This document shows positions 12,401 to 64,000 of a stretch of 64,000 nt of DNA, in pieces. The translations under genes were made by a program, and so were the position numbers. A model generated the notes under the pieces. The model saw only the letters and a program-made list of their open reading frames with translations. It was not told the DNA's origin and did not search any database. Source of the stretch: Candidatus Eiseniibacteriota bacterium (GTDB lineage: Bacteria; Joyebacterota; Joyebacteria; Joyebacterales; Joyebacteraceae); the NCBI GenBank assembly GCA_030595835.1, contig JAUVLG010000002.1, positions 19,147 through 83,146 of the forward strand, in the 5' to 3' direction. Position 1 is the stretch's first letter. Each line of letters begins with the position of its first letter.

Positions 12401-12902
12401 GCTTCCGCTCGGAGGCCACATACTGGACAGGGTAGAACGCAACGGTCGCGATCCCCTGGCCGGAGGCTGAGCCCGAGCCCAGGAGGACGCAGCTTCGCTC
12501 GGGGTAGGGACGCGACGATGCGTATGCCTCGGCATCCGCGTCGACCCAGGCAGCCGCCTCGAGTGTCGAGAGCGGTACCTCTGGCTGGCGTGGCCGCACC
12601 AGGAATGAGCCGGGACGTTCGCCCCGCGACAGGACCGTCGCCTCCGCACTCACCGCCACTGCCCCGTCTGGGAGAGCGAACCTGACGAGCATGAGCGGTA
12701 GTTCCGGGTACCCTTCTTCATGCGTCGTCAGTTCGCCTCGAAGGCGGACGACATCGAAGCCGTCTACCTGCTCGACGAAGAGATCCTGTTCCGCTACCTC
12801 CACTGTCGTCGTCAGCGCACTCTGTGACGCGAGAGCCATAGACGTGAGGGCGCAGAGAGCGGCGACAGTAGACAGCACTATCCGAAGACCGGACAGGCGC
12901 AT
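9486..12902 (-). CDS. Secreted C25 (gingipain-like) cysteine peptidase with FN3-like domain and FlgD-like/T9SS C-terminal sorting domain (1138 aa)
   Basis: Signal peptide MRLSGLRIVLSTVAALCALTSMALA. C25 core: VDYLIIAPSAYESTFQTLADWKAQKGLTTEVV...WVLLGGDTGVVPARTVYA; NHNGHAN His motif and SMGCWSAAID Cys motif. C-terminus NSPNPFNPSTSIRYSV...IYDVAGRRIATVLDETGHAGNHVASWDGRNDHGESVASGVYFCRLSVDTWNATRKMVMLK. Confidence 0.85.
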   Translation of the reverse strand: MRLSGLRIVLSTVAALCALTSMALASQSALTTTVEVAEQDLFVEQVDGFDVVRLRGELTTHEEGYPELPLMLVRFALPDGAVAVSAEATVLSRGERPGSFLVRPRQPEVPLSTLEAAAWVDADAEAYASSRPYPERSCVLLGSGSASGQGIATVAFYPVQYVASERKLYVNETTEISLKIEFAPNTARVPGPLSARSASAAAERSRSLVVNPEDVIDRSAGPRAGRGEVDYLIIAPSAYESTFQTLADWKAQKGLTTEVVTTTWIYSNYTGVDEQDQIRNCIIDYYENKGTMWVLLGGDTGVVPARTVYAMTSGVGGAPDEDQIRCDLYYGDLDGTWDANGNGTYGQISLDEIDMYADVFVGRAPVDNTTEAARFVNKVLTYEGAPGGDPLPTDYLENILFMAEVLWTNPWTDHAICKNMIDDESVPELYDPITKLYETSGNLSRSSAVAAMNTGYNIINHNGHANTTVLCIGSGALYRSDFDGLTNAPRYGLFYSMGCWSAAIDRDCIAEHWLNSPGGGGIAYVGNSRYGWGSPGNPGNGTGDEFDREFFSKLFNEGLEHAGVAHAAHKDAFVELARSERYTRYTLYELNLLGDPETRIWTRNPVTSTVAHAGEIPLGEHELLVAVSRDGEAIDGATVFLSCSELSVVATTGPDGVATLSPAPTVEGTMTIVVTGQGILPYEGSMSIVDQPPDTDAPAAVDNLIPADPFDVGGAILLDWAGYAPPSDFAHYRVYRDTERFSDVTEMTPIATDLLDAAMTDWTDVTAENKQHYYYALTAVDLSGNERTEVWSKGPIAASVNSSILLWDADDGDKPFDGIGDDYTTADGSEIPWIEALESVGELYSVSETLPADLSPFELIIYLGGVVNFGEPGANVQMTDDEAAALTSFLDAGGDVYVEEPMFGGSYYINGSPTALDLWNRFHATYVTGLGKGDGNVESVAGQSGEPTQDLSFDYDYQGWSDQFVGEVGPNGDAGTELVWLDQAGLERGALYVDAATGGRRYMVPVLLGGMTDGSHPSTRLEYVTRILDGSDLIGTTGVDDVGIGRANRLSQNSPNPFNPSTSIRYSVANDGARVRMHIYDVAGRRIATVLDETGHAGNHVASWDGRNDHGESVASGVYFCRLSVDTWNATRKMVMLK

Positions 12903-26451: not shown

Positions 26452-26577
26452 AAGTGAAAAGGAACCGCGCCGTTGATGGGGACGAGGCGATCGGGCTGGA
26501 TCCCGAACACGCAATGGCGGTCGAGTCGAAGGAGAGGCTTGAGGTCGAGCACCCGTAGGTATGTTGGGAGAGTCCCA

Positions 26578-38929: not shown

Positions 38930-40078
38930 TCAGACGACCGACCTGTCGGTCGTCACGGGTCCCTCGGTGAAGCGGCGCGCGTTCAGGCGAGAGATGTCGA
39001 GGTCCGGTTTCTGCCCGGCCACAACCTGCGCGACCAGCATGGCCACCTTCGGCGCGATCATGAAGCCGTGTCCCGAAAAGCCGTTCGCCTGGAAGAAGCC
39101 GTCCACGCCGTCGGTCTCACCGAGGATGGGCTGCGCGTCCGGTGTGAGATCGTACATGCCGCCCCACTGCCTGACGATCTTCACGGACCTCAGGCGTGGC
39201 ATGAGGAACGCCAGCTTCGCCGACATCGTGGTGAGGAACTCGAGGCTCGACGTCTGGTTGAAGCCCGCGGGCTCGTCCGGGTCTCCGAATCCACCGATCA
39301 CCGATCCGTGCCTGACCTGTCTGAAGTAGACCCCCAGGCTGAACGAGATGATCATAGGGTCGAAGAAGCGCTCGAGCGGCTCAGTGACCAGGATCTGCCG
39401 GCGGTACGGGGTGATGGGCAGATCTACACCTGCTGTCTTCGCGATCGGGACCGAATGGCTGCCGGTGACGTTGACCACGAGCGGAGCACGGATGGTCCCT
39501 CTGGACGTTTCGACGCCCGTCACGCGGCCGCGCTTCGTGAGGACCCGCGTGACCGGTGTGAAGAGCTCGACCTCGACCCCCAGGCGGCGCGCCGCGTCGG
39601 CGTAGGCTCTGGTCGTCAGGAACGGGTTGGCGCTGGCGTCCGAGGGGCAGTAGGTCGCCATCCGGACGCCGTCGGTGTTCAGCTGCGGCACGACTCTGTC
39701 TGTGATCTCGTCGGGGGTCAGGATCGCAACATCGAGGCCGAGCCCTTGCTGGAGAGCAACGTTCCTCTCGAACTGGGCCACGTCCTCGTCCGTGTAGGCG
39801 AGGACCAGATAGCCGCCCTGGAGGAACTCGATGTCGGCGTCGAGCTCCTCCGAAAGCGAAGAAAACTCCCTGACGCTCTCGATTGCGAGCTGCGTGTTGG
39901 CCTCCGTGCTCCACTGCTGGCGGATTCCCCCGCCGCAGCGACCCGTCGCGCCGCTCGACAGGTAGTCGGCCTCGACGAGAACACAGTCGGTCATCCCGGC
40001 CTTCGCCAGGTAGTAAGCGATGGCAGTGCCGACGACTCCGCCACCTATGATCACGCACTCGGCCCTACTCTTCATCAT
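38930..40078 (-). CDS. FAD-dependent oxidoreductase, sarcosine-oxidase-beta / proline-dehydrogenase-beta like (DadA family)
   Basis: 382 aa; ECVIIGGGVVGTAIAYYLAKAG (GxGxxG), ...LSSGATGRCGGGIRQQWS...; a DAO-type flavoprotein. Confidence 0.85.
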   Translation of the reverse strand: MMKSRAECVIIGGGVVGTAIAYYLAKAGMTDCVLVEADYLSSGATGRCGGGIRQQWSTEANTQLAIESVREFSSLSEELDADIEFLQGGYLVLAYTDEDVAQFERNVALQQGLGLDVAILTPDEITDRVVPQLNTDGVRMATYCPSDASANPFLTTRAYADAARRLGVEVELFTPVTRVLTKRGRVTGVETSRGTIRAPLVVNVTGSHSVPIAKTAGVDLPITPYRRQILVTEPLERFFDPMIISFSLGVYFRQVRHGSVIGGFGDPDEPAGFNQTSSLEFLTTMSAKLAFLMPRLRSVKIVRQWGGMYDLTPDAQPILGETDGVDGFFQANGFSGHGFMIAPKVAMLVAQVVAGQKPDLDISRLNARRFTEGPVTTDRSVV

Positions 40079-40373
40079 TGGTTCCTGTCGGGGCGCTGAC
40101 GTTCATGACGTCGGGTTCCGCAAGCGTTCCTATCTCGACGGGCCTCGACGGCGGGCGGACGGCCGGGTACGGCACGTCGGCTATCTTCGCTCCGGTCTTC
40201 TCGGCGATTATCCGCGCGATGAGTCTCGAGCACGTGCGTCCCTGGCACGGCCCCATTCCGGTGCGGAGGACCCGCTTGATCTCCTCGGTGGTCGTGAGCC
40301 CTTCGTCGATCGCGTCCACGATCTCACCGTAGGTAACGTCCTCGCACCTGCATATGATGACGTCACGATTCAT
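40065..40373 (-). CDS. BFD-like [2Fe-2S]-binding small subunit
   Basis: 102 aa from the ATG overlapping the upstream stop (ATGA): MNRDVIICRCEDVTYGEIVDAIDEGLTTTEEIKRVLRTGMGPCQGRTCSRLIARII carries the BFD-like C-x-C...C-x4-C motif. Confidence 0.7.
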   Translation of the reverse strand: MNRDVIICRCEDVTYGEIVDAIDEGLTTTEEIKRVLRTGMGPCQGRTCSRLIARIIAEKTGAKIADVPYPAVRPPSRPVEIGTLAEPDVMNVSAPTGTNDEE

Positions 40374-40870
40374 GCAGTCACGTCCTTGGCCAGAAAGTGC
40401 CTCACGTCCATCGCGTGGTCCGCGGGCACGGAGAGAGTCACTATTGGGGTCCGGTCGAGCGCCAACGCCTGCAGGACACGCTTGACCGTTCCCTCGCCGA
40501 GAACCTTGCCTTCCCTCGACAGCGTTACCACCGTGTCGCCGACGGAGGGGAGGGGGGTGTACTCGTAGGGAAGCGAGACCGTCGCGGCTCCGGCGTCCAG
40601 GCTCATGTCGACCACGAAGATCGCGAGCCCGGGGCACGCGCTGACACAGAGCCCGCACCCGTCGCAGGTGTCGAAGTCGACCGACGGTGTGCCGTTCATG
40701 TCGCCCTCTATGCGGATGGCGCCCTTGGGGCACGCTTCCACACACGGGTCGCACGGGATGTTCTCGACGCACTCGATGATGGCGACGGGCCCGCAGGCCG
40801 ACCTCTCCGTCGAGGGCACGAGGGGCAGGAGCTGCCGCCGTTCAAGGATGCCGTCCTGTCGGTGACTCAC
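40370..40870 (-). CDS. 4Fe-4S ferredoxin-like subunit
   Basis: 166 aa; two Cys clusters (CVENIPCDPCVEACP and CDGCGLCVSACP). Confidence 0.7.
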   Translation of the reverse strand: MSHRQDGILERRQLLPLVPSTERSACGPVAIIECVENIPCDPCVEACPKGAIRIEGDMNGTPSVDFDTCDGCGLCVSACPGLAIFVVDMSLDAGAATVSLPYEYTPLPSVGDTVVTLSREGKVLGEGTVKRVLQALALDRTPIVTLSVPADHAMDVRHFLAKDVTA

Positions 40871-42324
40871 GAGTCACCCCCTCGCGCGCTGGCCAGTGCG
40901 AGCATCTTCCGCTTACCTGCTCTGGCGTGCTTTCCGAACGGGCCGGCCCTGAGCGCGCGCAGGCCTTCTTCGGCCTCGCTTCTGAGGCGCGTCAGTTCAC
41001 CCATCTCCCGGTCGTGGAGGAACTTCGCGGCGGCCGAGAGGCCGGCGAGTCGTCCCTCGAGCATCGCCGTCGATGCTTCCTCAATGCCGGAGGCGTCGCC
41101 TGCGATGTGGACGCCGGGGACCGTGGTCTCGAGGCTCGCGTCGTGAATTGCCACCCTGCCGCCCAGCTCGGCGACGTATGCCTCGTCGCACCCGAATTGT
41201 GATGCCAGTTCGCAGTTGGGGGTGAGTCCGACGGCCAGGCAGATGGTGTCCACGTCGAGCTCGACTTCCGTGCCCTCGATGGGTCGCCAGTCACCGTCGA
41301 TCTTCGAGATGACTGCGCCCTCCACGCGGTCGGTTCCCAGAGCGCGAAGAACGGTGTGTGAGGTCATGATCGGAACGCCGGCGCGTCTGATTTTCGCCGC
41401 GTGCACGTGGTAACCGCCGAACTCGGGCAGACCCTCCACGACGGCCGCGACCTCGACGCCAGCCTGGAGAAGCTGATAGCTTACGATGAGCCCGATATTG
41501 CCGGCGCCTATCATGAGAACGCGTTTCCCGGGAGCGACGCCGTCGACGTTCATGAGCGTCTGGACGGCCCCGGCGCCGTAGACCCCGGGGAGGTCGCTGT
41601 TGGGAAACGCCAGCATGTTCTCGGAAGCGCCCGTGGCCAGGATGACCGAGTCCGCCGTCAGACGGTGCAGTCTGCCGTTCCGAAGAAGCGCGAGCATCCT
41701 GCCGGGGTAGAGGCCCAGAACTGTGGTGCCGGTCAGACAATCGACCGGCAGATCCTCGATCTCCTTCACGAGAATCGCGCCGATGTCGATGCCGCGCACC
41801 CGGGCATGGTGTTCCTTCGACCCGAAGAACATGTGGGTCTGCTTGATCAGTTGGCCGCCCGGAACGGGGTTCTCGTCAATGACAACGGATCTGACCCCGA
41901 GCTGTCCCGCTGCAATGGCCGCGGAGAGCCCCGCCGGTCCGGCGCCTACGATGGCGAGCGGTACGTTGCCCAGGTCTCTCGGGTAGTCGGGATCTGTTGG
42001 GGGGGTGGGGAAGTGCACGTCCGGGATGATGCCCTTGCCCGTCTGTGTCTCGATTCGCATGCCCGCCGACAGCGCGGTCACGCACGTCATTACGTTCGGG
42101 ACGCCGTCGACGGTCATCAGGCACGACGAGCACCTGCCGATGGCGCAGAAGAAGCCCCTCGGCCGGTCGAGTTTGATGCTGTGTCGAAGGACGCGAACGC
42201 CGGCCGCGTGCAGCGCCGCGGCGATGGATTCACCCTCGTGCCCCTTGAGTTTCCGGCCGTCGTGCTCGAACTCGACGAGCGGGCCCTTCTCGAACTTGAG
42301 GATCGGGTGTTCCGTGATGCGCAC
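40867..42324 (-). CDS. NAD(P)/FAD-dependent oxidoreductase alpha subunit with N-terminal 2Fe-2S domain (OoxA / HcnB / PDH1-alpha like)
   Basis: 485 aa; N-terminal 2Fe-2S ferredoxin-like segment (GFFCAIGRCSSCLMTVDGVPNVMTC), Rossmann motifs LAIVGAGPAGLSAAIAA and RVLMIGAGNIGLIVSYQL; overlaps the next gene by 4 nt. Confidence 0.8.
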   Translation of the reverse strand: MRITEHPILKFEKGPLVEFEHDGRKLKGHEGESIAAALHAAGVRVLRHSIKLDRPRGFFCAIGRCSSCLMTVDGVPNVMTCVTALSAGMRIETQTGKGIIPDVHFPTPPTDPDYPRDLGNVPLAIVGAGPAGLSAAIAAGQLGVRSVVIDENPVPGGQLIKQTHMFFGSKEHHARVRGIDIGAILVKEIEDLPVDCLTGTTVLGLYPGRMLALLRNGRLHRLTADSVILATGASENMLAFPNSDLPGVYGAGAVQTLMNVDGVAPGKRVLMIGAGNIGLIVSYQLLQAGVEVAAVVEGLPEFGGYHVHAAKIRRAGVPIMTSHTVLRALGTDRVEGAVISKIDGDWRPIEGTEVELDVDTICLAVGLTPNCELASQFGCDEAYVAELGGRVAIHDASLETTVPGVHIAGDASGIEEASTAMLEGRLAGLSAAAKFLHDREMGELTRLRSEAEEGLRALRAGPFGKHARAGKRKMLALASARGGDS

Positions 42325-45932: not shown

Positions 45933-46988
45933 CTACCTCGCGGACTGCTTCGCGAGGTACTCTTCGAACTTGCCCCAGAACGGATCGATCTCGGGGTGCT
46001 CGAGAGGATGCCGCCCGTCCTCGTCGATGACGACGACACCCGCGTCGGGCTCGGTGAGTTCTCCCACGACGGACGCGGGTATCCCCTTTCCATCAAGGGC
46101 CGCCAGGATGTCCTCGGCCCGGTCGGGCTTCACCGTAGCCACGAGAGTCCCCTCACTGATGCTCTTGTAGGGGTCGATGTCGAAGACCTCACAGGTCTTC
46201 ATGACGGCGTCCTGTGTTACGATGCTGCACTTCTCGACCACGAGCCCCTTCCCGGACGCTCGCGCTATCTCGAACAACGCGCCCCAGATCCCGCACTCCG
46301 TGGCGTCGTGCATGGCGGTTACGCCGCCCACGCCCGCGCAGATGGCGGCGTCCTCGATGACGGACATCTGGTAGAAGACGCTCTGAGCCTGCTCGGTCGT
46401 GGTCTCGCCGAAGCGCTCGGTTATGAACTCGGGGAATTGGACCGACATCAACCCGGTCGTCTCGACCGCCGGCCCCTTCGTGATGATGATCCTGTCGCCC
46501 ACCTCTGCCTTGCGAGGATCGATCAGGTCGTCGCTCGCGCCGACCCCGATGACCGTCGCCCCACCGACCATTGGGAAGTTGCATCCCGCGTACCTGGCCG
46601 TGTGCCCGGTGACAATGGCGATTCCCAGGCGTTCCGCCTCCTCGTGCACCGTCTGCCAGATGGTGACGAGCGCCTGCTCCTCCAACTCGGGCGGGAGGTT
46701 GAGATCGACGGCGAGAAACCGAGGTGGGATCCCACTGACGGCGACGTCACTCGCGACAATGTGCAGCGCGAACCACGCCGCGCGCTCCCAGCCTAGCGAG
46801 GGAGCGATGAAGAACGGGTCGGTCGACAGGACCACGGTCCGGTCGCCTATGGTGATGGCCCCGAAGTCGACGCCGTGGGTTGGCCCCACAACGACCGAGT
46901 CGTCGCGCGCCCCGAGGCGCGGGAAGATCACTTCGTCGAAGAACTGTGGTGTTGCCTTGCCCAGTGTTGGAAGTCTTTCCTGCGGCAT
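45933..46988 (-). CDS. AIR-synthase-related (PurM superfamily) protein, HypE-like
   Basis: Start at ATG with GGGAGGA upstream (MPQERLPTLGKATPQFFDEVIFPRLG...). PurM-fold motifs ...VVLSTDPFFIAPSLGWERAAWFALHIVASDVAVSGIPPRFLAVDLNLP... (HypE-like) and C-terminal ...AMHDATECGIWGALFEIA.... The upstream 98 codons of the track ORF are Arg-rich junk. Confidence 0.75.
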   Translation of the reverse strand: MPQERLPTLGKATPQFFDEVIFPRLGARDDSVVVGPTHGVDFGAITIGDRTVVLSTDPFFIAPSLGWERAAWFALHIVASDVAVSGIPPRFLAVDLNLPPELEEQALVTIWQTVHEEAERLGIAIVTGHTARYAGCNFPMVGGATVIGVGASDDLIDPRKAEVGDRIIITKGPAVETTGLMSVQFPEFITERFGETTTEQAQSVFYQMSVIEDAAICAGVGGVTAMHDATECGIWGALFEIARASGKGLVVEKCSIVTQDAVMKTCEVFDIDPYKSISEGTLVATVKPDRAEDILAALDGKGIPASVVGELTEPDAGVVVIDEDGRHPLEHPEIDPFWGKFEEYLAKQSAR

Positions 46989-47083
46989 GCGTCCTCCCTG
47001 CAACGGTGTTGTCTTTCGTTCCCTTGTCGTCACACTCGGGGCACGCGGTCGCGTCGGTAGCCCGCTGCGGTTTCGTCCCGTGT

Positions 47084-47626
47084 TCAGCCGCGTCCGCTCT
47101 CCTCTATGTAGGTGCGGACGATCCTCCTGTGATCCGCGAACGCTATCGGCTGCGGCAGGTCGTCCATGTCGAAGAACGCCGCCTCGGCCGCGTCGTCGCC
47201 CGCGGCGAGTTCTCCGCCAACCACCCTGGCAGTGAACGCAATACTGATGACGGGTGTCCTGGGGTCTTCGTCCGTCGCCCATGTGTCGTAGATGCCGGTG
47301 ATCTCGACGTCGAGCCCGGTCTCTTCCTTCGTCTCTCTTGCCGCGCTCGCGTCCGGCTGTTCACCGGCCTCCAGGAAACCCGCCGGCAGGCACCACTTTC
47401 CCTTGCCGGGCTCGTACTTGCGCAGTACGAACAGGAGCTTCCCGTCCCGCTCGGCCAGCACGCACGTCACCGCCGCCGGCGCCATGTAGAAGATGTAGGA
47501 GCAGCTCGTGCAGACCATACGCCGGTGACCGCGGCTCTCTCGCTCCTCGAGCCGGGCCGCGCACCTCGGGCAGAACTTCAGCCCCTCGTAGTTCGCCTGC
47601 GCGTCTATGTCATATGTGTCGTCCAT
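47084..47626 (-). CDS. NUDIX hydrolase with N-terminal zinc-ribbon
   Basis: Start MDDTYDID (GGGAGGAAG RBS); zinc ribbon CPRCAARL...CTSCSYIF; Nudix box GKWCLPAGFLEAGEQPDASAARETKEETGLDVEI. Confidence 0.8.
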   Translation of the reverse strand: MDDTYDIDAQANYEGLKFCPRCAARLEERESRGHRRMVCTSCSYIFYMAPAAVTCVLAERDGKLLFVLRKYEPGKGKWCLPAGFLEAGEQPDASAARETKEETGLDVEITGIYDTWATDEDPRTPVISIAFTARVVGGELAAGDDAAEAAFFDMDDLPQPIAFADHRRIVRTYIEESGRG

Positions 47627-54975: not shown

Positions 54976-55108
54976 ATCGCTCCCCATCAGTGCCTTCCCC
55001 CGACTTTCCCGGAAGAACCCCACAAGCAGCTTGACACGCCGAACATTCGCACTATATAATATTAGCAGGTTTGAATAGAACCGCCTTGAAGGCTGTTGGG
55101 AGCCAGTA

Positions 55109-55459
55109 ATGGACGATGCGGGTCACACCACAGAGAGCGCACGGGCGGGGGAGACTCAGTCCGAGGCGTGTGAGAAGGCGGCGGAGCTTCTTCGCGCCCT
55201 CTCGCATCCCGTCCGGCTCAGGATCATCAAACTCCTGGGCGAGGGAGAGCTGTGTGTGAAGAGCCTCGAGGAGATACTCGAGATCTCGCAGTCGTCCGTC
55301 TCGCAGCATCTGACGCGCCTGAGGTACGCCGGACTCATCGAATCCGAGCGCAGAGGGCATCTCGTCTGCTACCGACTGGTCAAGGGCGGTGCGGCGAAGG
55401 TAGTGGAAGCGGCATTGGACGAGTCACAACAGAGAAACTCAGGAGAGGAAGGTAGCTGA
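55109..55459 (+). CDS. ArsR/SmtB-family transcriptional regulator
   Basis: LLRALSHPVRLRIIKLLGEGELCVKSLEEILEISQSSVSQHLTRLRYAGLIESERRGHLVCYRL is the ArsR-type wHTH. Confidence 0.8.
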   Translation: MDDAGHTTESARAGETQSEACEKAAELLRALSHPVRLRIIKLLGEGELCVKSLEEILEISQSSVSQHLTRLRYAGLIESERRGHLVCYRLVKGGAAKVVEAALDESQQRNSGEEGS

Positions 55460-55460
55460 C

Positions 55461-55784
55461 ATGAGTAAGACAATGGCCGGAACCGATGGGAACTTCGAAG
55501 TCGAGGTCCTCAAATCTGACAAGCTGGTGGTGGTTGATTTCTGGGCGCCCTGGTGCGGGCCGTGTCGTCTGGTCGGTCCGATCCTCGAGGAGATCGCGGA
55601 CGACAACGACGGCAAGCTCAAGGTGGTGAAGGTCAACGTCGATGAGAATCCCGCGCTCGCGCAGCACTACGGGATCCGCGGCATTCCGACGATGATGTTC
55701 TTCAAGGGTGGTGAGCAGGTCGACATGACCGTCGGCGCCGCCATGAAGAACAGTATTCAGGAGAAGGTAGACGCCCTGCTCTAG
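55461..55784 (+). CDS. trxA: Thioredoxin
   Basis: 107 aa; VVDFWAPWCGPCRLVGP...NPALAQHYGIRGIPTMMFFKGGE is canonical TrxA with a WCGPC active site. Confidence 0.9.
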   Translation: MSKTMAGTDGNFEVEVLKSDKLVVVDFWAPWCGPCRLVGPILEEIADDNDGKLKVVKVNVDENPALAQHYGIRGIPTMMFFKGGEQVDMTVGAAMKNSIQEKVDALL

Positions 55785-55790
55785 TCGGAC

Positions 55791-56414
55791 ATGGAGGTAG
55801 CAAGCATGATGAAGATCCTGAAGGTCGTAGTTCTCTTGCTGTCGGCAGCGGTTCTCTCTGTCGGGTTCGCCGGCTGTGGCGGAACGGAAGAGGAGGTGTC
55901 GGCTGGTGAGACCGCAGTGACCACCGAGGGAGTTGGAGCCGTGCCGGTCCCACAGGCGTCCGGTGTGGGTGTTGAGCCCGGACAGACTCCGCCTGCGTTC
56001 GTGCTTCCCGACCTCGACGGCAACGATCTGTCCCTCGACGATTTCAAGGGCAAGGTCGTTATTCTCGACCTGTGGGCGACCTGGTGTCCGCCGTGTAGGA
56101 AGGAAATCCCGTTCCTGGTCTCGCTCCACGAGGAGTACAAGGACCAGGGGCTCGCCGTCATCGGTGTAGGGCTGGACCAAGGCGGCGCCGCGGTCATGGC
56201 CCCGTTCGTAGAGGCCAACAGCATGAGTTACACGGTTGTCGTCGGCAACCAGAAGATCAGCCGCGACTTCAAGGTGAGCGGTATTCCCATGACCCTCACC
56301 ATAGACAGGGACGGCCGCGTGGCCGCCAAGGACGTCGGGTTCGCGCCCTCGATGGAAGCGGAGATGCGCGCCCGCGTCGTGGAGCTGCTTGCACGTCCCG
56401 CGACAGAGGCGTAG
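55791..56414 (+). CDS. TlpA/ResA-like thiol-disulfide oxidoreductase lipoprotein
   Basis: Signal plus lipobox (LLSAAVLSVGFAGCGG); redoxin fold with active site DLWATWCPPCRKEIP. Confidence 0.8.
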   Translation: MEVASMMKILKVVVLLLSAAVLSVGFAGCGGTEEEVSAGETAVTTEGVGAVPVPQASGVGVEPGQTPPAFVLPDLDGNDLSLDDFKGKVVILDLWATWCPPCRKEIPFLVSLHEEYKDQGLAVIGVGLDQGGAAVMAPFVEANSMSYTVVVGNQKISRDFKVSGIPMTLTIDRDGRVAAKDVGFAPSMEAEMRARVVELLARPATEA

Positions 56415-56622
56415 AAGCGCCGCACACATCTGAGTATCGCGCAGGGGGACGACACGTGAAGTGGGGTGAACTGGCACTGCCCGCCGCCTTCATCGGACTC
56501 TGGCTGCTGCTGCAGCTGGTGGTGCTGCCCAGACTCGGTGTGGCGACGTGACTCAAGTCGTCCTGCGGACCCGCCGAGCGGGTCGAGGAGTCGTCGGGTC
56601 ACGACGATGTTAGCGAGCAGTG

Positions 56623-57015
56623 ATGGAACCGCCCCTCATCGTTGTCAGGAAGTCGAAGTTCGAACTCGAGCTGACTACGTCGGTTGGGACGCGTGTGTTC
56701 CCGGTGGGCATAGGTTCGAACCCGGACGGCGCGGACAAGGAGAGGGAAGGCGACTGTCGTACTCCTGAGGGCGAGTTCACGGTTGTGTCCATCGAGGACT
56801 CGAGCGAGTGGAAGCATGAGGGAGAGCGGGCCTATGGTCCGCTCTTTCTGCGTCTTGACTGCCCGCCCTGGGAGGGGATCGGCATACACGGTACAAACGA
56901 GCCAGAGGGTATAGGCACGAGATCGAGCAGGGGTTGTGTCCGGATGAGGAACGACGATCTCGTGACGGTGGCGGGCGAGGTGACCGTGGGCACACGGGTC
57001 AGGATAGTTCCGTGA
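56623..57015 (+). CDS. L,D-transpeptidase (YkuD) catalytic domain protein
   Basis: GIHGTNEPEGIGTRSSRGCVRMRNDDL carries the His/Cys catalytic motif of the YkuD domain. Confidence 0.75.
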   Translation: MEPPLIVVRKSKFELELTTSVGTRVFPVGIGSNPDGADKEREGDCRTPEGEFTVVSIEDSSEWKHEGERAYGPLFLRLDCPPWEGIGIHGTNEPEGIGTRSSRGCVRMRNDDLVTVAGEVTVGTRVRIVP

Positions 57016-57157: not shown

Positions 57158-57832
57158 ATGCGACCCGGTAAGTTCGTGGCCGTCGCCGGAAACATCGGTG
57201 TGGGTAAAACCCACCTCACCACGCTTCTTGCGAACCACTTGGGCTGGCGCGCGTACTACGAGCCCGTCATCGACAATCCCTACCTCGACGACTTCTATAG
57301 TGACATGGAGCGCTGGTCGTTCCACCTCCAGGTCTTTTTCCTCTCGAAGCGCTTCGAGATTCACAGAGAGATGGTGAGTTCGGACGAACCGTGCATCCAG
57401 GACAGAACCATATACGAGGACAAGGAGATATTCGCTCACACCCTGCACAACCAGGGCTTCATGTCGGACCGGGACTACGAGAACTACACCGCCCTGTTCG
57501 ACGCGATGACGAGCTTCCTGCATACTCCCGATCTCGTGGTCTACCTGCGCGCCGGGGTGGACACGCTGCAGGAGCGTATCAGGTGCCGCGGTCGCAGTTG
57601 CGAGCGGGAGATATCGAGCGAGTATCTCGAGGCGTTGAACCGCGCGTACGAAGACTGGTGCGCCCGGGCATCGCTGATCACAGAAGTGCTTATCATAGAC
57701 ACGGAGGGCCTCGACCTGGTGCGGGACGAGGCAGCCGTGGAACGCGTCCTGACGACCGTTGTGAGGCGCCTCGGGCCGACCACCCCAGAGGATCAGCCGG
57801 CCGAAGTCGGCCTGGAACTCGCGAGCATATAG
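57158..57832 (+). CDS. Deoxynucleoside kinase (dAK/dGK/dCK family)
   Basis: P-loop VAVAGNIGVGKT, ...YYEPV..., ...ERWSFHLQVFFL..., and the DRxxYED motif (QDRTIYEDKEIF). Confidence 0.8.
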   Translation: MRPGKFVAVAGNIGVGKTHLTTLLANHLGWRAYYEPVIDNPYLDDFYSDMERWSFHLQVFFLSKRFEIHREMVSSDEPCIQDRTIYEDKEIFAHTLHNQGFMSDRDYENYTALFDAMTSFLHTPDLVVYLRAGVDTLQERIRCRGRSCEREISSEYLEALNRAYEDWCARASLITEVLIIDTEGLDLVRDEAAVERVLTTVVRRLGPTTPEDQPAEVGLELASI

Positions 57833-58044
57833 CGTCCATCGCGGAATCCGGTTCCAGGGGAAGCGCCGAGCGGAGCCTCACCCAATCCCGATTACACGCA
57901 GGCCGAATGAGATCGAAACCGGAGCGTCCAAGCTCCAGGCGGCTGCATTGGTGAGTCAAGAACCGGTGCGCGGGTGCGCTACACGTGAATTCTTGACCTA
58001 TGGACTGTATGATGATATAATAGGACAGGAATAAAAATGGGGGT

Positions 58045-58602
58045 TTGATGACCTACAGGAGACTGGCGGGGCTTGCGATCGCGCTGGCTGCGCTCCTCGT
58101 GTTGACGGGGACAAGCATATCTGTGGGCGCTGCCAAGAAGGCGCCCGAGTTTACACTTCCGAATCTCGATGGTGAGGACGTCACACTATCTGAGCTGCTC
58201 GAGGACGGACCGGTGATCGTGGATTTCTGGGCGACGTGGTGCAAGCCGTGCATCAAGGCGTTCCCCGATCTGCAGGAGGTCTTCGACAAGTACAGGAACT
58301 GCGGGCTCACGGTAGTTGCCATCTCGATCGACGGACCGAAGTCAATGTCGCGCGTCGGGTCGCTCATCAAGTCGAAGGGGAACACGTTCGAGGTGCTTCT
58401 CGATCCGGGCCAGAAGGTTGCGAGGAAGTTCCACGTGACGTCCGTTCCCAGGACCGTGCTGGTGAACACGGACGGGACCATCGCCTATGCGGTGACGGGT
58501 TACCGCCCGAAGAACCACGAGGAACTGGAAGCCGCCGTGGCCAAGCTCCTTCCGGGCGATTGCCCCGAGGAGCCGGAGAGCGAGGAGAAGGCCGTTGAGT
58601 AG
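58045..58602 (+). CDS. Secreted TlpA-like thioredoxin-fold thiol-disulfide oxidoreductase
   Basis: Signal peptide; APEFTLPNLDGEDVTLSELLEDGPVIVDFWATWCKPCIKAFP. Confidence 0.8.
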   Translation: MMTYRRLAGLAIALAALLVLTGTSISVGAAKKAPEFTLPNLDGEDVTLSELLEDGPVIVDFWATWCKPCIKAFPDLQEVFDKYRNCGLTVVAISIDGPKSMSRVGSLIKSKGNTFEVLLDPGQKVARKFHVTSVPRTVLVNTDGTIAYAVTGYRPKNHEELEAAVAKLLPGDCPEEPESEEKAVE

Positions 58603-60166
58603 AAACGGGTGGGCGCTTGCGCTCCTTTCCGTCGCGCTCTTGGCCCTCGTGTCGGCCTCGGCGTTGGCTGAGACCGACGTCTACGCGAGCGGCGTGGTGC
58701 GGGGGAAGTACCTCTACAGCACCGACGAGGAGGCATCCGTCTGGGACACCAGAGTCGATTTCGACGCCAGCATCGGAGCGCTGACGCTTGGGGCGGTCTA
58801 CCGGGGATTCTGGCTCTCGGACGACGAGTACAATCCCGCGAACGTTGTGGTGGCTGATCCCAACGACGTCAAACATCGCTACGCCGCGCTCGAGTACGAG
58901 GATTTGTACCTCAGGGCAGGGCATTTCTCCACGACGTTTGGGCACGGCCTGACGCTTCGGAGCTACGAGGACGTGGACCTTGAGCACGACACCCTGCTGG
59001 ATGGATTCTCCGCCGAATACGATGCTGGCGTGTTCGATGTTACGGTTCTGACCGGCGCGTCCAGGGAGGATTCAGGCGACAGGTTCTACGCGCATACCGT
59101 GCACGGTGCCCGGGTCAGCGTGCCCGTGGGCGAATGGGTGGAAGTCGCCGGCAGTGCCGTCGAGCGCTCGCGGATCTGGAACGACGAGGACGGCGAGTTC
59201 GGGGGTGACTTCGCCCGGTTCGAGGACAGCGTGCGCGGGGCGGAGGTGTCTGGTTGGATCGGACCATTCACGTTCGGGGGCGAGTACGCTGAGAGGAGCG
59301 GGGACTACCCGGAGGCGGCGAAGAAGGTCGATCCTGAGACCGGCGGGCTCGCGTACCCGCGGGGGCAGGTCGAGACGCAGGGCCACGCGACCTACGCTTC
59401 CGGAACGCTCGACCTCGGATGGGCCACGCTCTTCGGCGAGTTCAAGGACTTCGACGACTTCGCCCACAGCCTGGCCAATCCGCCGACGTGCGTGCGCGAG
59501 CACCTATGGACTTTGATGAACCGCGCAACCTACGAGGTGGATCTCAATGACGAGCGCGGTTTCCTCGTGGAGGGAAGTTCGGTTCTTGGTGACGCAGTCT
59601 TCGTGACGGGTGGGGCGTCGGAAGCCAGGAGCCACGATCGGGATCTTCGCCACTGGGAGATGTTCGGCCACGCGACCTACGACGTGGGCTCCGACATAAC
59701 GCTTGGTGCGGCCGCGTCACGATCGAGGGAGTACCTGTTCGGGGAGGAAGGCGGCATCGGGAAGTTCACCGAGCACACTACGGGAGTGGTGGAGGCCGAT
59801 CTCACCTTCGCGCTTGGGGCTCTCGGTGACCAGACGGTCGAGCTGACCCTTGAGATGCAGCGGACCGAGGATCCGGCCCTGGATACTCAAGATGACTACG
59901 TGGCATCGGTCGCGTGGTATCCGGGGCTGGATCTCATCCCGGGGCTGGAGGATCTCACGGTCTCCGGTGTCTACGAGAAGACGACCATCGATTGGGAGGA
60001 GCGACAGAACTGGATCATGCTCTCCGTCCGGAAGTCGTTTGCCAACGACCTCGAGGCGGAGATCGCAGGCGGCACCGAGCGTGGGGGCAAGAAGTGCGCG
60101 GGCGGCATCTGTCGCTACGAGCCTGAGTTCGAGGGCGTCAGATTCAGACTGACGAAGTTCTTCTAG
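58595..60166 (+). CDS. Putative outer-membrane beta-barrel protein
   Basis: Signal peptide LALLSVALLALVSASALA; alternating amphipathic beta-strand pattern; C-terminal ...VRFRLTKFF ending in an aromatic residue. TTG start overlaps the preceding stop. Confidence 0.5.
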   Translation: MSRNGWALALLSVALLALVSASALAETDVYASGVVRGKYLYSTDEEASVWDTRVDFDASIGALTLGAVYRGFWLSDDEYNPANVVVADPNDVKHRYAALEYEDLYLRAGHFSTTFGHGLTLRSYEDVDLEHDTLLDGFSAEYDAGVFDVTVLTGASREDSGDRFYAHTVHGARVSVPVGEWVEVAGSAVERSRIWNDEDGEFGGDFARFEDSVRGAEVSGWIGPFTFGGEYAERSGDYPEAAKKVDPETGGLAYPRGQVETQGHATYASGTLDLGWATLFGEFKDFDDFAHSLANPPTCVREHLWTLMNRATYEVDLNDERGFLVEGSSVLGDAVFVTGGASEARSHDRDLRHWEMFGHATYDVGSDITLGAAASRSREYLFGEEGGIGKFTEHTTGVVEADLTFALGALGDQTVELTLEMQRTEDPALDTQDDYVASVAWYPGLDLIPGLEDLTVSGVYEKTTIDWEERQNWIMLSVRKSFANDLEAEIAGGTERGGKKCAGGICRYEPEFEGVRFRLTKFF

Positions 60167-60175
60167 GAGGAATGG

Positions 60176-61243
60176 GTGCTGAGACGGGAGCATACGACGG
60201 TTTCGAGGGTCCGGAGCGAGGTTTTCATCGTCGCCCTTGTCGCGGTTGCGATAGCGGGCGGATGCGACTGGTTCGACGCCCCGTCGCAGATCAACCTTCC
60301 TCCTGAGACGACGATAACCGTGTGTCCGTCCTCGCTCGTTTCGCCCGGTGACAATGTCACCATCAAGTGGACGGGCAGCGACCGGGACGGCCAGGTCGTC
60401 GAATACGAGTGGACGCTCGATGACACGCTGGAAGGAACGACGCACGCCACGACGATGATGGTCACCGGTGTGGAGGAGGGAACGCACACTTTCACGGTGG
60501 CATCGATCGATAACGACGGTGATGTCGATGCGTCACCGGCGGAGTGCACGTTCACCGCCGGAGAGTACGTGGAGCGCGTCGTGCTCTGCGAGCTTCTGAC
60601 GACGAAGATATGTCCGAACTGCTGGAAGGCGGACCTGGTCCTCGAGCAGATGCTCGAGGAGTTTGGTGAGGAGAATCTTTCCGTGGTGTCGTACCACTAC
60701 GATCCGCCTCCCGATCCACTGGCGACGCCGGCGACGTTGGCGCGCTGTGACTGGTACTACACGTTCCCGGACTTCAGTCATCTCGGTGATGCCTTCCCGA
60801 CCACGTTGTTCGACGGGCTGACCTACAAGACCGGGGCGGCGGATATCACCGCGACGGAGATCGCCTACAGGACGCAGATCGAGGCTCGCCAGGTTGTCGG
60901 GTCGCCGGTGAGCATCGAGCTTCAGGGAGAGATCGGGGGGGGACGGGGGAGCGTGACGGCCACGGTGAGAGTTCACTACCAGTTGTCCGAGAGCTCCTAC
61001 ACACTTCGGATGATGATCATCGAGAATGACGTCTGGGATGGCGCTCACTTCGCCAGCTTCGTTGTGAGGGAGTTCTTGCTGGAGGAGGAGCTGCTGAACG
61101 TGGACGCCGTGGGCGAGTCGCTCGTCGTCAGCCGGGAGTTCGCGCTCGGCGACTGGAATGCGGAGTATCTGGATATCGTGGCACTGGTGCAGGACGACGC
61201 AACCGCGGAAGTACTCCAGTCCGGGCGGTTGATGACGGAATAG
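60176..61243 (+). CDS. Lipoprotein with Ig-like domain and thioredoxin-like CPNC module
   Basis: Lipobox VAIAGGC. Module VVLCELLTTKICPNCWKADLVLEQMLEEFGEENLSVVSYHY is homologous to the N-terminus of the 61644 gene (VLAEMFGATWCGYCPNATVALQQLQEEYGTDGLVCFYYHV). Confidence 0.6.
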   Translation: MLRREHTTVSRVRSEVFIVALVAVAIAGGCDWFDAPSQINLPPETTITVCPSSLVSPGDNVTIKWTGSDRDGQVVEYEWTLDDTLEGTTHATTMMVTGVEEGTHTFTVASIDNDGDVDASPAECTFTAGEYVERVVLCELLTTKICPNCWKADLVLEQMLEEFGEENLSVVSYHYDPPPDPLATPATLARCDWYYTFPDFSHLGDAFPTTLFDGLTYKTGAADITATEIAYRTQIEARQVVGSPVSIELQGEIGGGRGSVTATVRVHYQLSESSYTLRMMIIENDVWDGAHFASFVVREFLLEEELLNVDAVGESLVVSREFALGDWNAEYLDIVALVQDDATAEVLQSGRLMTE

Positions 61244-61369
61244 TCAGGTTGATGATTGATCGAATGATGGCTGGTTGAGGAAGCTAGTGGGCTGGAACAC
61301 TGCCTCTACAACAGAGAGGCGGCAGGATCCTGCGACAAACCGAGCGGTGTGACCGCAAGGGGAGAACAG

Positions 61370-61540
61370 CATGCTGAAGCGTTCGGCGATCCTGGGACTC
61401 GTGGTTCTGGTCCTGTGTATCGGCGTTCTTCCGGCAGTGTCCGCGCAGCGGACCGTGCTGGCGGAGCTTTTCGGGGCGACGTCGTGAGGCTTACCGCCAA
61501 CGAGGAGAACGCGTTCAGGAAGATGACGCTGCTCAAGTAG
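61370..61540 (+). pseudogene. Deletion-derived remnant of a paralog of the downstream gene (signal peptide plus 13 codons fused out of frame to the last 16 codons)
   Basis: MLKRSAILGLVVLVLCIGVLPAVSAQRTVLAELFGATS* (compare downstream MLRRAAIVIGLAVAVLLAGTVPAASAQRTVLAEMFGATW...). Immediately after, in the +2 frame: ...LTANEENAFRKMTLLK* (compare downstream end ...SSEDSAFRKMTLLK*). Confidence 0.6.
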
Positions 61541-61643
61541 CAGCTTCGAGTGGTGCGCCTAGTTGGTCTGTGTCGGACGCGCCCCCACGGAGCCCGCCTG
61601 CGCCGGGGGCCTTGAGTTGGATGACACCAGGAGGAGGAGCGAC

Positions 61644-63656
61644 ATGTTGAGGCGTGCGGCGATAGTTATCGGACTTGCTGTTGCGGTGCTTCTGGCGGGC
61701 ACGGTGCCCGCGGCGTCCGCCCAGCGAACGGTGCTGGCCGAGATGTTCGGAGCCACGTGGTGTGGCTACTGCCCGAACGCCACCGTGGCGCTGCAGCAGC
61801 TTCAGGAAGAGTACGGTACGGACGGTCTCGTTTGCTTCTACTATCATGTCGGCGATGCGTATGCGACCGCGGAGACGCACAACCGGGCCAGCTACTACGC
61901 GGTTGGCGGCATTCCCGAGGTCGACTTCGATGCTGTGACGGAGGTCGTGGGCGCCGGGACGAATATCTACGACGTCTACGCTCCGATCGTCGCGACGAGA
62001 TACGCGGAGTCGACCCCGGTTACCATTCGCACCGAGGGCGTTATCTACGCCGCGGGCGACCCCGACTCCAGCTGGGTGACGGCGGTGTTCAAGGCCGTCG
62101 ATACCGTGCCCTACGGTGACCTCAGGGCCTACTTCATCGTCTGCGAGAACACGAGCGAGGTCTATCCGTGGACAGTGCGGGACATGCTGCCGCCCTCCAC
62201 GGTCACCACGCTGGCGGCGGCCGGCGACTCCGTCGTCATCACCAGGAAGTTCAAGGTGGACGCGGCGTGGGACCTTGAGGAGCTCGGCGTGGTGGTCTTC
62301 ATTGAGGACACCGATCCGAAGCTGATCGTCAATGCTCAGGTGATGCCCGCACCGTTTAGCAACAGCTTCGGCCACGCGGACCGCTACGCGGTCGAGATCG
62401 ATTACTTGGGCGAGGCCATCTACCACATCGTTCTCGAGAACACCGGCGTGATGTCGGACGTCATCACGGTCGATATCGGTCACGATATTATCCCGGATGG
62501 TCTGGGGTCGTGGGATTGGGTCGCGTTCTACTGTGATACGGACGGCGCCTGTCACTTCGGCCCGTGGGACTTCGTGCTCGAGCCCGCGGCGAAGGAGACC
62601 TTCGACGTTCACATCTTGGACAACGTCGGCCACACTCAGGGCATGGCTCTGACCACGCTTAGCGCGACGAGCACGAGTGACCCCTCGATGATGTCCAGCG
62701 AGTCGTTTGCGACGTTCGTCGACCTGCCGTCGGTCCTGCTGGTCGACGACGACGGCGGCGCATCAGACGAGACGTATCTGGAGACGGCACTGACCGACAC
62801 GGGTTACACGGCGATGGTGTGGGACGCCGAGGTGAGGGGCAGGCCGTGCATGACACGTCTGGAGTCCTACTGGGCGGTCCTGTGGACCACGGGCGGTGGC
62901 TCCGCCGCCGATCTCGGCGGTTCCTGCGAGAACAACATGGCGGCGTACCTGGACGGCGGCGGAAACCTGCTGCTCTCGAGCATGGAGTTCCTGTCCAGCC
63001 GCGTCAACACGCTCGCGTTCCGGACGGACTACCTGCACATCGACTCGTACACGAGCGACAATGGTGGCTTCGTCGTTACGGGCGAGACGGGGGACGCCAT
63101 CTCGGCGGGGATGTCTCTGAATCTGCTCGGAGGTCCTTTCGCTCCCAATCCCAGCGACGTTTTCGTCGCGGGTTCCGCGGCCGATGTCATCTTCACGAGC
63201 CCGGCCGGGACCGAAGGTATTCGCGTTGAGGAGAACGACCACAAGGTGGTCTTCCTGAGCTTCCCGTTCGAGGACGTGAAGACCACGGAGGCCGCTCCCA
63301 ACAACCAGAAGACACTGATAGGGCGCATACTGAACTGGTTCAGCCTGCCGTCTGGTGTTGAGGCCGGACAGGTCCACCGCCTCGCGCTCCAGCCGAACTA
63401 CCCGAACCCGTTCAACCCCGTGACCAGGGTCGCGTTCTCGGTGCCCGAGGCCGCCGGACGGGTGAGCCTCACGGTCCACAACGTCAACGGTCAGGTGGTT
63501 CGCACGCTGGTCGATTCTGAGCTTCCCGCGGGTCCCGCGCTTGCCGTGTGGGATGGAACCGACGACCTCGGGCGCCCTCTCGCGTCCGGGATCTACTTCG
63601 CGAAGCTCGCATCGAGCGAGGACAGCGCGTTCCGGAAGATGACACTGCTGAAGTAA
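61644..63656 (+). CDS. Secreted thioredoxin-like CGYC-module protein with FlgD-like/T9SS C-terminal sorting domain
   Basis: ATG after GGAGGAGGAG; signal peptide; WCGYCPNA module; C-terminus NYPNPFNPVTRVAFSVPEAAGRVSLTVHNVNGQVVRTLVDSELPAGPALAVWDGTDDLGRPLASGIYFAKLASSEDSAFRKMTLLK. Confidence 0.7.
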   Translation: MLRRAAIVIGLAVAVLLAGTVPAASAQRTVLAEMFGATWCGYCPNATVALQQLQEEYGTDGLVCFYYHVGDAYATAETHNRASYYAVGGIPEVDFDAVTEVVGAGTNIYDVYAPIVATRYAESTPVTIRTEGVIYAAGDPDSSWVTAVFKAVDTVPYGDLRAYFIVCENTSEVYPWTVRDMLPPSTVTTLAAAGDSVVITRKFKVDAAWDLEELGVVVFIEDTDPKLIVNAQVMPAPFSNSFGHADRYAVEIDYLGEAIYHIVLENTGVMSDVITVDIGHDIIPDGLGSWDWVAFYCDTDGACHFGPWDFVLEPAAKETFDVHILDNVGHTQGMALTTLSATSTSDPSMMSSESFATFVDLPSVLLVDDDGGASDETYLETALTDTGYTAMVWDAEVRGRPCMTRLESYWAVLWTTGGGSAADLGGSCENNMAAYLDGGGNLLLSSMEFLSSRVNTLAFRTDYLHIDSYTSDNGGFVVTGETGDAISAGMSLNLLGGPFAPNPSDVFVAGSAADVIFTSPAGTEGIRVEENDHKVVFLSFPFEDVKTTEAAPNNQKTLIGRILNWFSLPSGVEAGQVHRLALQPNYPNPFNPVTRVAFSVPEAAGRVSLTVHNVNGQVVRTLVDSELPAGPALAVWDGTDDLGRPLASGIYFAKLASSEDSAFRKMTLLK

Positions 63657-63735
63657 CAGTCTCGCGTGCGCGCCAGGAAGGGTTCTCCGGACGTGCACCT
63701 GTTTCCGACAGTCACGGCGGGAAGGAGTCTCAACA

Positions 63736-64000
63736 TGATGGTCTGGCGCCTGGTGGTGGGAGCGCTCGCGGTAGCTTTGTTCGCGCCCGCCGCTCACGCG
63801 TACCCCAGAGACGATGCGGCGGTGGTCACGGTCGACATTCTCTCTCGTGAGGATATTCATCGTCTGAACGAACTCGGGATGGACATCATGTCAGTCCGGG
63901 AGGGAGTCGCGGAGATAGCGGCCATACCGGCCGAGGTGGATGCGCTGTGGGCGAACGGGTTCCGACCGACCGTCATTCTTCCCAGGATGATCGACGCCGT
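63736..64000 (+). CDS. Secreted hypothetical protein, N-terminal fragment (continues past window end)
   Basis: RBS GGAAGGAG; MMVWRLVVGALAVALFAPAAHAYPRDDAAVVTVDILSREDIHRLNELGMDIMSVREG...; no stop before 64000. Confidence 0.5.

Follow-up and report, generated by a model that had tools for sequence, protein, structure and literature searches.

How might a redox enzyme that works beyond the outer membrane be kept reduced? The question is raised by a stretch of 64,000 nt from Candidatus Eiseniibacteriota (GenBank assembly GCA_030595835.1, contig JAUVLG010000002.1, positions 19,147 to 83,146; hereafter the window), in which four plus-strand genes, lettered F, G, H, and I (coordinates in Table 1), are predicted to encode a secreted TlpA-like protein, an outer-membrane beta-barrel, a lipoprotein, and a type IX secretion system (T9SS) cargo. 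Our reading is that H and I are thiol-disulfide oxidoreductases, that I is displayed at the surface, and that F feeds them through a reducing pathway; we give this whole statement a probability of roughly 0.55. Its core, that H and I are redox-active, extracytoplasmic proteins of the HBP35/Omp28 type, is in our judgement highly probable, and the details of the relay are tentative and rather doubtful. A preliminary description of the window, made from the letters alone, had placed four open reading frames (ORFs) on this strand; all four lie where it put them, and the peptides that it quoted from H (VVLCELLTTKICPNCWKADL) and I (GATWCGYCPNATVAL) are present.

What H and I have in common is a module that had been described as some 40 residues around a CxxC pair, in a family that could not be named. 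Pairwise alignment, which had been suggested as a check, shows homology well outside what chance would give (26% identity over 213 aa, H 133-340; BLASTP E = 7e-14), and the true extent is about 215 residues (H 131-355, I 25-239), five times longer than described, with 17 diverse H- and I-type modules aligning end to end. Positions R5, V7, L8, E10, C17, C20, D48, and R58 are invariant in that alignment, as are P68, P102, G109, E145, R156, L159, G171, and F180 further along.

AlphaFold2 models of the two proteins (mean pLDDT, the model confidence score, 87 each) place the CxxC after strand 1, where the long helix 1 has its N-terminus, which is the thioredoxin arrangement that had been proposed (H: strand 136-142, C146/C149, helix 149-163; I: strand 30-36, C40/C43, helix 43-61). 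The invariant P68 (GIPEV in I, FPTT in H) stands directly before strand 3 (92-95 in I, 209-212 in H) and was assigned to the (cis-)Pro loop by that position. In both models, a beta-sandwich of seven to eight strands follows the thioredoxin domain. When the H model is compared with the PDB using Foldseek, the top match is HBP35 (5Y1A; E = 7e-13, 249 columns, TM(target) 0.58), with 2AXO (DUF1223, Atu2684; E = 6e-11) and 2R2C (Omp28 domain; E = 3e-5) also found. A profile of the module searched against PDB sequences matches 2AXO (1.9e-7), HBP35 (1.3e-5, with stretches in both halves), and the MJ0307-type thioredoxins (1fo5, 1nho). Among the NCBIfam models, the best match of both modules is NF045500, "Omp28-related selenoprotein" (nearly full length, E = 3.5e-14 and 1.7e-12), and NF033782, "Omp28 family outer membrane lipoprotein", is matched at positions 31-86 by the N-terminal CxxC region, with 28.7/38 bits against a cut-off of 150. 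The family can, therefore, be named: H and I are distant members of the HBP35/Omp28-type thioredoxin-fold superfamily that fail the curated sequence models.

Around the shared module the two proteins are built differently. H has a signal peptide followed by G29-C30-D31, invariant in 41 sequences, with C30 as the lipobox Cys, which agrees with its earlier description as a lipoprotein. A PKD-like domain (residues 48-120; 60317-60535) precedes the thioredoxin and beta-sandwich module (60566-61240), where the CPNC motif (60611-60622) has the context ICPNCW, and H has no C-terminal T9SS domain. The start of I is the ATG at 61644, which is preceded by a ribosome-binding site (GGAGGAGG) and agrees with homologues that begin at MLRR; its motif reads TWCGYCPN, and the module hidden Markov model (HMM) matches at 61716-62360. 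The FlgD-like sorting domain that had been seen at the end of these 670 residues scores above the cut-offs of both FlgD_ig (43.7 bits, cut-off 27) and TIGR04183, T9SS type A (24.1 bits, cut-off 23). By their signal peptides, the lipobox Cys of H, and the T9SS tag of I, both proteins are predicted to be extracytoplasmic.

Between the module and the tail of I lie an immunoglobulin (Ig)-like domain and an alpha/beta domain. The Ig-like domain has a conserved Cys pair, C297/C303, in YCDxxGxCxFGP (62532-62552), which may be a second disulfide or redox site. For the alpha/beta domain, the only informative PDB match is the GATase1-like STM3548 (2GK3; TM(target) 0.55); a Foldseek search with the whole of I was dominated by generic matches to tandem beta-sandwiches (transglutaminases, RbmA), and only this domain was informative. 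The C-terminal part of I, some 430 residues (240-670; 62361-63653), is also found fused to a metallophosphatase head in proteins of 837 aa with 63-67% identity over 61-62% of I (P0067 and its relatives; we use labels such as P0067 and P0111 for related proteins and L001-L074 for related loci), and the Ig-like, GATase1-like, and C-terminal domains also stand alone as 471-aa proteins in related genomes. These sequence comparisons suggest that this part is a reusable display stalk for different T9SS heads.

The cysteines are conserved in homologues. Every H orthologue with the region covered has a CxxC (43/43, of which 42 are CxNC), down to 41% identity, and C-G-[YH]-C occurs in 33/33 I homologues called at full length. 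A profile search of 1.84 billion cluster representatives yielded 10,850 relatives at E<=1e-3, counted as clusters at 50% identity, and 3,498 at E<=1e-10; in the best 150 of these the CxxC is present in 142 of 145 N-terminally intact modules, and 14 proteins start just past the motif. Dozens of I homologues are likewise annotated as 621-623 aa, starting with "LQQLQEEYG" right after the motif. At the DNA level, such homologues have a 38-codon ORF, a TGA, and then the remainder in frame ("...GATW-U-GYCPNA..."), that is, the short annotations exist because gene callers split these genes at the UGA into ORFs of 38 and ~622 aa.

A six-frame scan of 74 loci, with TGA read through, found 28 such UGA-form modules (L001-L047), the UGA being always at the first Cys position and the motif variants including UGYC, USYC, UGTC, UPGC, and UGGC among others; examples are L001 8632-10653, and L003 7732-9750 and 9854-11866. 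The H-type genes were always of the Cys form. The forms with selenocysteine (Sec) have two types of hairpin after the UGA that resemble a Sec insertion sequence (SECIS). In the short proteins of a second clade this is a 10-bp stem 18 nt after the UGA, in which six pairs show compensatory double changes. In the I-type genes it is a 4-6-bp stem, ACGCC/GGCGU, that has the loop CGUGM, begins some 17 nt after the UGA, and shows little covariation; for the Arg in this loop, 13/14 Sec forms use CGU, an otherwise rare codon (CGT, 6/104 Arg codons in the window genes), and it is at these codons that the Cys forms have diverged. Judged by these sequence features, the UGA-form relatives have the hallmarks of bacterial selenoprotein genes. 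Alternation of the first Cys with Sec is strong comparative evidence that the CxxC is redox-active, and it favors redox chemistry over metal binding. The preliminary description had allowed for either function; thiol-disulfide exchange is upheld by this alternation and by the HBP35 match, and metal binding is disfavored. A recent Sec-to-Cys change might have left the TGT that I has where relatives have the Sec codon; this idea was set aside as not significant, since TGT makes up 15/55 Cys codons in the window genes.

The 400-nt gap between H and I, which had been left empty of features, holds the remains of one of these Sec-form genes. This remnant begins with an ATG at 61371 and 38 codons (MLKRSAILGLVVLVLCIGVLPAVSAQRTVLAELFGATS) that run to a TGA at 61485-61487, after which the frame shifts to the last 17 codons (...RLTANEENAFRKMTLLK) and a stop ending at 61540. 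The first piece corresponds to the N-terminus of an I-type protein and the second to its final 17 residues, and the hairpin was lost in the deletion. An intact Sec-form gene is present in L010 (38 aa + U + 632 aa), and blastn aligns window 61244-61491 with L010 9504-9750 (89%) and window 61479-61650 with L010 11584-11755 (82%); the 13-nt overlap of the two matches indicates a deletion of ~1846 nt at a microhomology. The comparison with L010 thus identifies an internal deletion and rejects a chimera of paralogues, and an assembly artefact is rejected too, the identical junction being found in an independent assembly (L006, GCA_030609365.1). The deletion is a real, lineage-specific event. In related genomes, two I-type genes stand in tandem, as Sec+Sec (L003) or Sec+Cys (L001, and the assembly with L010 and L008, where an intact Sec copy is followed by a Cys copy), and the window retains the Cys copy only; GCA_030613615.1 is a relative in which Sec has been kept. 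The JAUWLR contigs break between tandem Sec/Cys copies (L007 1-147; L008 1-127; L010 end), probably as a result of the repeated 3' end and intergenic sequence.

We now turn to the genes that precede H. F was described as secreted and TlpA-like with a WCKPC motif, and its signal peptide and its matches to AhpC-TSA (93.2 bits) and Redoxin (80.7 bits) in Pfam bear this out; its scores for the NCBIfam equivalogs are below the cut-offs (ResA 99.5 vs 170, TlpA 44.8 vs 230). G, earlier a putative outer-membrane barrel, has a signal peptide, passes the DUF6029 cut-off of 27 with 75.7 bits (Porin_4 is a weak match), and ends in ...RLTKFF, as outer-membrane barrels do, so that this assignment also stands. 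Its best-conserved stretch, GGKKCxGGxCxxEPEFEG (60095-60112), lies just before the last strand and contains C501/C506, invariant in 31 orthologues; in distant DUF6029 loci the presence of this pair partly follows from the search pattern and should not be over-read. A G profile found no relative among PDB sequences. The sole paper mentioning DUF6029 that our literature search found likens it to the Wzi barrel and suggests a role in polysaccharide export (PMC9603273). F and G overlap by 8 nt, and G and H are separated by 9 nt; with a promoter-like site at 57993, this spacing is the reason for regarding F, G, and H as an operon, and the three appear to be translationally coupled behind one promoter.

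Gene order across related loci ties these genes together. Homologues are annotated as Candidatus Eisenbacteria, and five Eisenbacteria contigs share one order: GltX, DUF2914, ArsR, Trx, TlpA, YkuD, dNK, TlpA, DUF6029, H, I (one or two copies), and M14 peptidase. A search with a DUF6029 alignment, taking one genome per species, gave 66 loci (L009-L074). Wherever the upstream sequence is long enough to tell (58/58 loci), the gene directly upstream of the barrel is TlpA-like, and this holds even for barrels with no more than 22-28% identity, a number of which come from Myxococcota or Deltaproteobacteria (e.g., L060 4941-7141). Downstream of the barrel, an H-type gene is present in 32/32 Eisenbacteria-type loci with room for one. 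T9SS-tagged modules occur downstream of H in one clade, and in another one to three such modules lie upstream of the TlpA gene. On these counts, TlpA-DUF6029 is an older pair, to which the modules were attached in Eisenbacteria, and the gene order supports a functional link of the modules with the TlpA-like gene and the barrel. The suggestion of a cell-surface redox or folding system that includes an outer-membrane protein thus fares well as regards the barrel, which is linked by strict synteny; the system itself is an idea drawn from context. Beside one distant pair, L048 (4600-9904), SelA follows the barrel gene directly, and the same locus has genes for a PEGA+TlpA fusion and for a small Ig protein that bears a T9SS tag and has a Cys-pair region like that of the I Ig domain.

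How, then, could the parts work together? H and I would each have a thioredoxin-fold domain packed against a beta-sandwich, with the CxxC as redox centre; the case for this centre is made by fold homology to the proven disulfide reductase HBP35, by conservation, and by Sec exchange. I would be exported by the Sec pathway and then by type IX secretion, and be displayed on, or released from, the surface, its Ig-like and GATase1-like domains forming the stalk. H would be an outer-membrane lipoprotein, on either the periplasmic or the surface face. Reducing equivalents would originate at cytoplasmic thioredoxin, cross the inner membrane via a CcdA/DsbD-type protein encoded outside the window, and be received by F in the periplasm; F would then hold H, and I during its periplasmic transit, in the reduced state, with the G barrel as partner or conduit. 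At the surface, I would reduce extracellular disulfides or oxidants. Disulfide-bonded extracellular proteins digested by the neighboring T9SS peptidases would be one candidate substrate, because the neighborhood is rich in such peptidases (M14, two C25) and in OPT peptide uptake. The data show homology, the fold, conservation of the motif, Sec/Cys exchange, and synteny; which way the electrons flow, what G does, how H is oriented, and what is reduced we infer. With its Cys pair, the barrel is an obvious candidate conduit for re-reducing a surface enzyme; the fuller version, in which the strictly paired TlpA-like reductase and DUF6029 barrel (with its invariant C-x4-C) form a thiol/selenol relay across the outer membrane that feeds the lipoprotein H and T9SS-displayed thioredoxins or seleno-thioredoxins of the I type, we regard as improbable. 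Were it true, Eisenbacteria would have an outer-membrane counterpart of DsbD and an energized surface reductase.

Several observations weigh against this proposal. The evidence for activity of H and I comes entirely from sequence, models, and synteny. Identity to HBP35 is only ~18%, NF045500 scores of 53.0 (H) and 47.4 bits (I) fall below the cut-off of 200, and H reaches 16.8 bits with Pfam PF11551 (Omp28), below the gathering cut-off of 34.9. No CcdA/DsbD-type gene was recognized among the scanned large ORFs of the window, nor was any sel gene of the Sec machinery, and the window has no tRNA-Sec. The Cys pair of G is probably on the extracellular side of the last strand, by topology reasoning only. 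The physiological role of HBP35 is tied to hemin use and not to a defined disulfide substrate (PMC2907840). Finally, no module lies within 7 kb in 27/28 distant loci; the TlpA-DUF6029 pair therefore has its own function, and H and I are not necessarily served by G.

That last point leads to the view that F and G are a unit unrelated to H and I, in which, for example, G is a Wzi-like barrel for polysaccharide or solutes whose Cys pair is matured by the TlpA-like protein, and H and I are adjacent in Eisenbacteria only. The lack of modules in 27/28 Myxococcota-type loci, the likeness of DUF6029 to Wzi with its suggested part in polysaccharide export (PMC9603273), and the invariant C501/C506 of G all fit this view. 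The H-type gene after G in all 32 Eisenbacteria loci, here at a 9-nt gap, and the T9SS-tagged modules, always adjacent on one side or the other, are hard to explain without a functional tie; we think this view unlikely. A somewhat different possibility is that H and I are surface ligand receptors like HBP35, binding heme or another nutrient through the beta-sandwich half, the CxxC being secondary. HBP35 binds hemin through residues 135-344, independently of its CxxC, and its mutant grows poorly without hemin (PMC2907840); HBP35 can also be aligned with the module in its beta-sandwich half, and Omp28 has been described as a surface protein. For a bystander, however, it would be unexpected that the CxxC is the most conserved feature over ~10,850 clusters and that many lineages have upgraded it to Sec; the partner in the operon is an oxidoreductase of the TlpA type, a dedicated one, and no heme-uptake genes were seen adjoining the cluster. 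A receptor role is, therefore, fairly unlikely.

The chemistry itself can also be read in other ways. H and I could be an antioxidant shield, thiol or selenol peroxidases at the envelope of an anaerobe that are recycled by F. Selenoproteins of the peroxidase type typically have Sec at the attacking position, the AhpC-TSA and GSHPx models are matched by F and by the upstream TlpA, and an ArsR-type regulator and a thioredoxin lie upstream in all relatives. In fold, however, their matches are to HBP35 and DUF1223 and not to peroxiredoxin or GPx, and the UxxC/CxxC spacing is the arrangement of disulfide exchange, which makes a peroxidase shield quite unlikely. TlpA proteins serve copper-site assembly in some bacteria and CxxC pairs are able to bind metals, so one might also take the pair for a structural disulfide or a non-catalytic Zn/Cu site. 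This is highly improbable, given that the fold is that of a thioredoxin, with the motif at the N-terminus of helix 1 and a conserved Pro loop, that Sec replaces the first Cys only, and that the same motif is found in HBP35, an active reductase (PMC2907840). Surface thiol-disulfide exchange, supplied by F, remains the reading that we prefer.

Table 1. Features of the locus and domains of I, in window coordinates
Feature	Position	Strand	Residues	Basis or remark
Sigma-70-like promoter TTGACA-18-TATAAT	55031-55060	+		12/12 matches; consensus scan, pattern match only; precedes ArsR-Trx-TlpA genes
ArsR/SmtB-type helix-turn-helix (HTH) regulator	55109-55459	+		Pfam HTH_5 58 bits; position kept in relatives
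Cytoplasmic thioredoxin (TrxA), WCGPC	55461-55784	+		Pfam Thioredoxin 110.6 bits
First TlpA/ResA-like exported thioredoxin-fold protein, WCPPC, FAGC lipobox-like signal	55791-56414	+		Pfam AhpC-TSA 82.5, Redoxin 80.8 bits
YkuD L,D-transpeptidase	56620-57015	+		
Deoxynucleoside kinase (dNK)	57158-57832	+		
Sigma-70-like promoter TTGACC-17-TATAAT, extended TG	57993-58021	+		11/12 matches; consensus scan, pattern match only; 24 nt 5' of F
F, predicted secreted TlpA/ResA-like thiol-disulfide oxidoreductase, WCKPC	58045-58602	+	185 aa	
G, DUF6029 outer-membrane beta-barrel	58595-60166	+	523 aa	
H, lipoprotein, PKD-like Ig domain and HBP35/Omp28-type module	60176-61243	+	355 aa	
Remnant of Sec-form paralogue of I	61371-61540	+		Sequence reading; blastn vs intact gene in L010; identical junction in L006
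I, T9SS cargo	61644-63656	+	670 aa	
I, signal peptide	61644-61715		1-24	
I, thioredoxin-like domain	61722-62009		27-122	CGYC at 61761-61772
I, Omp28-like beta-sandwich	62010-62348		123-235	
I, Ig-like domain	62361-62723		240-360	C-x5-C pair
I, GATase1/flavodoxin-like alpha/beta domain	62727-63347		362-568	
I, FlgD_ig/T9SS C-terminal domain	63411-63653		590-670	
Start of next gene, T9SS-tagged M14 carboxypeptidase	63735-64000	+		Runs past window end; N-terminus 90% identical to L006 protein

As can be seen in Table 1, the plus strand from 55.0 to 64.0 kb is a compact gene set running from the ArsR-type regulator through I. The nearby TrxA and the first TlpA-like protein, both named in the preliminary description, are recognized by Pfam, and the L006 counterpart of the M14 gene is a 772-aa Peptidase_M14/FlgD_ig protein. 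The Cys-dependent enzyme YkuD is a possible client, its gene being close to the TlpA-DUF6029 pair in the window and also in the Myxococcota-type L060 (7138-8865, minus strand); whether YkuD travels with the pair outside Eisenbacteria was asked using single-sequence phmmer, which was too insensitive and overlooked the Pfam-confirmed YkuD of L060. Elsewhere in the window, two large C25 (gingipain-type) peptidases with FlgD_ig T9SS tails are encoded on the minus strand (4331-9034 and 9486-12902), one of them also bearing FG-GAP/beta-propeller repeats. Other genes include an OPT oligopeptide transporter (26473-28569), DUF3160 (33366-35330), a sarcosine-oxidase-like FAD/2Fe-2S gene set (38930-42324), and a stand-alone MvhD/FlpD-like protein (3525-4136), whose ORF has no in-frame UGA. 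An AIR-synthase-like ORF (45933-47282) was considered as SelD and rejected, being below all cut-offs.

Already known are the fold and the motif, display by the T9SS (from HBP35), and the occurrence of Sec in the superfamily (from NF045500). Three features were not found in the searchable literature or curated models: that TlpA and DUF6029 are strictly paired, that in Eisenbacteria this pair is coupled both to a lipoprotein resembling HBP35 and to arrays of Sec/Cys modules with T9SS tags, and that I has its multi-domain architecture. Literature searches for Omp28 with selenoprotein, and for Eisenbacteria with selenocysteine, found nothing relevant, and no paper in the searchable literature ties selenoproteins to type IX secretion, to which this locus points. 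What emerges is a widespread HBP35-type module with its CxxC under selection, repeatedly upgraded to Sec in an uncultured phylum and hard-wired to a periplasmic TlpA-type reductase and an uncharacterized barrel. This gives a concrete partner set with which one can ask how a redox enzyme beyond the outer membrane stays reduced, and would provide a first functional context for DUF6029. The remnant between H and I, for its part, is a clean case, supplied by nature, of selenoprotein-gene loss from a genome that retains the Cys paralogue.

It remains to set the locus beside known systems. F is like the envelope pathways that join TlpA/ResA to CcdA/DsbD in its WCxPC motif and, by prediction, in its type, and the proposed electron flow to extracytoplasmic CxxC clients would work alike. 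The differences are that no CcdA/DsbD gene was recognized in the window, that the clients here would be outer-membrane or surface proteins and not assembly factors for cytochrome c or Cu centres, and that the proposed steps past the periplasm are without precedent. G, being above the DUF6029 cut-off, resembles the DUF6029/Wzi-like 18-stranded barrels, whereas its pairing with a TlpA-like gene and its C-terminal C-x4-C were not found described in the literature searched. DUF1223/Atu2684 (2AXO), a secreted thioredoxin-like CxxC protein, is the best PDB sequence-profile match and the second-best fold match, but it has neither a T9SS tag nor a lipoprotein context.

Closer comparisons are found within the superfamily. 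Members of the Omp28 family (PF11551, NF033782; 2R2C) resemble H in being lipoproteins with the same beta-sandwich, although H scores far under the cut-offs and has an added PKD-like domain. The existence of NF045500 indicates that Sec in the superfamily is already known to curators; the window proteins differ in encoding Cys (TGT at 61761 in I and at 60611 in H), and the Eisenbacteria Sec forms, at 19-30 bits against its cut-off of 200, are separate, uncurated branches. To our knowledge, HBP35 is the only surface-displayed thioredoxin of a T9SS organism to have been studied. This 344-residue Porphyromonas gingivalis protein, a T9SS cargo with a WCGYCP motif and a T9SS C-terminal domain, reduces insulin faster than Escherichia coli Trx, an activity abolished in C48S/C51S (PMC2907840). 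I is like it in signal peptide, thioredoxin-like domain, WCGYCP, beta-sandwich, and T9SS C-terminal domain (EWCGYCPG in HBP35, TWCGYCPN in I), and the short Sec-form Eisenbacteria proteins (343-383 aa), in which the module stands between a signal peptide and a T9SS C-terminal domain, have the HBP35 architecture. By comparison, I has extra Ig-like and GATase1-like domains that separate the module from the C-terminal domain, H differs in being a lipoprotein with a PKD domain, CPNC, and no T9SS C-terminal domain, and the genes described here lie in a TlpA-DUF6029 operon and have many relatives that use Sec.

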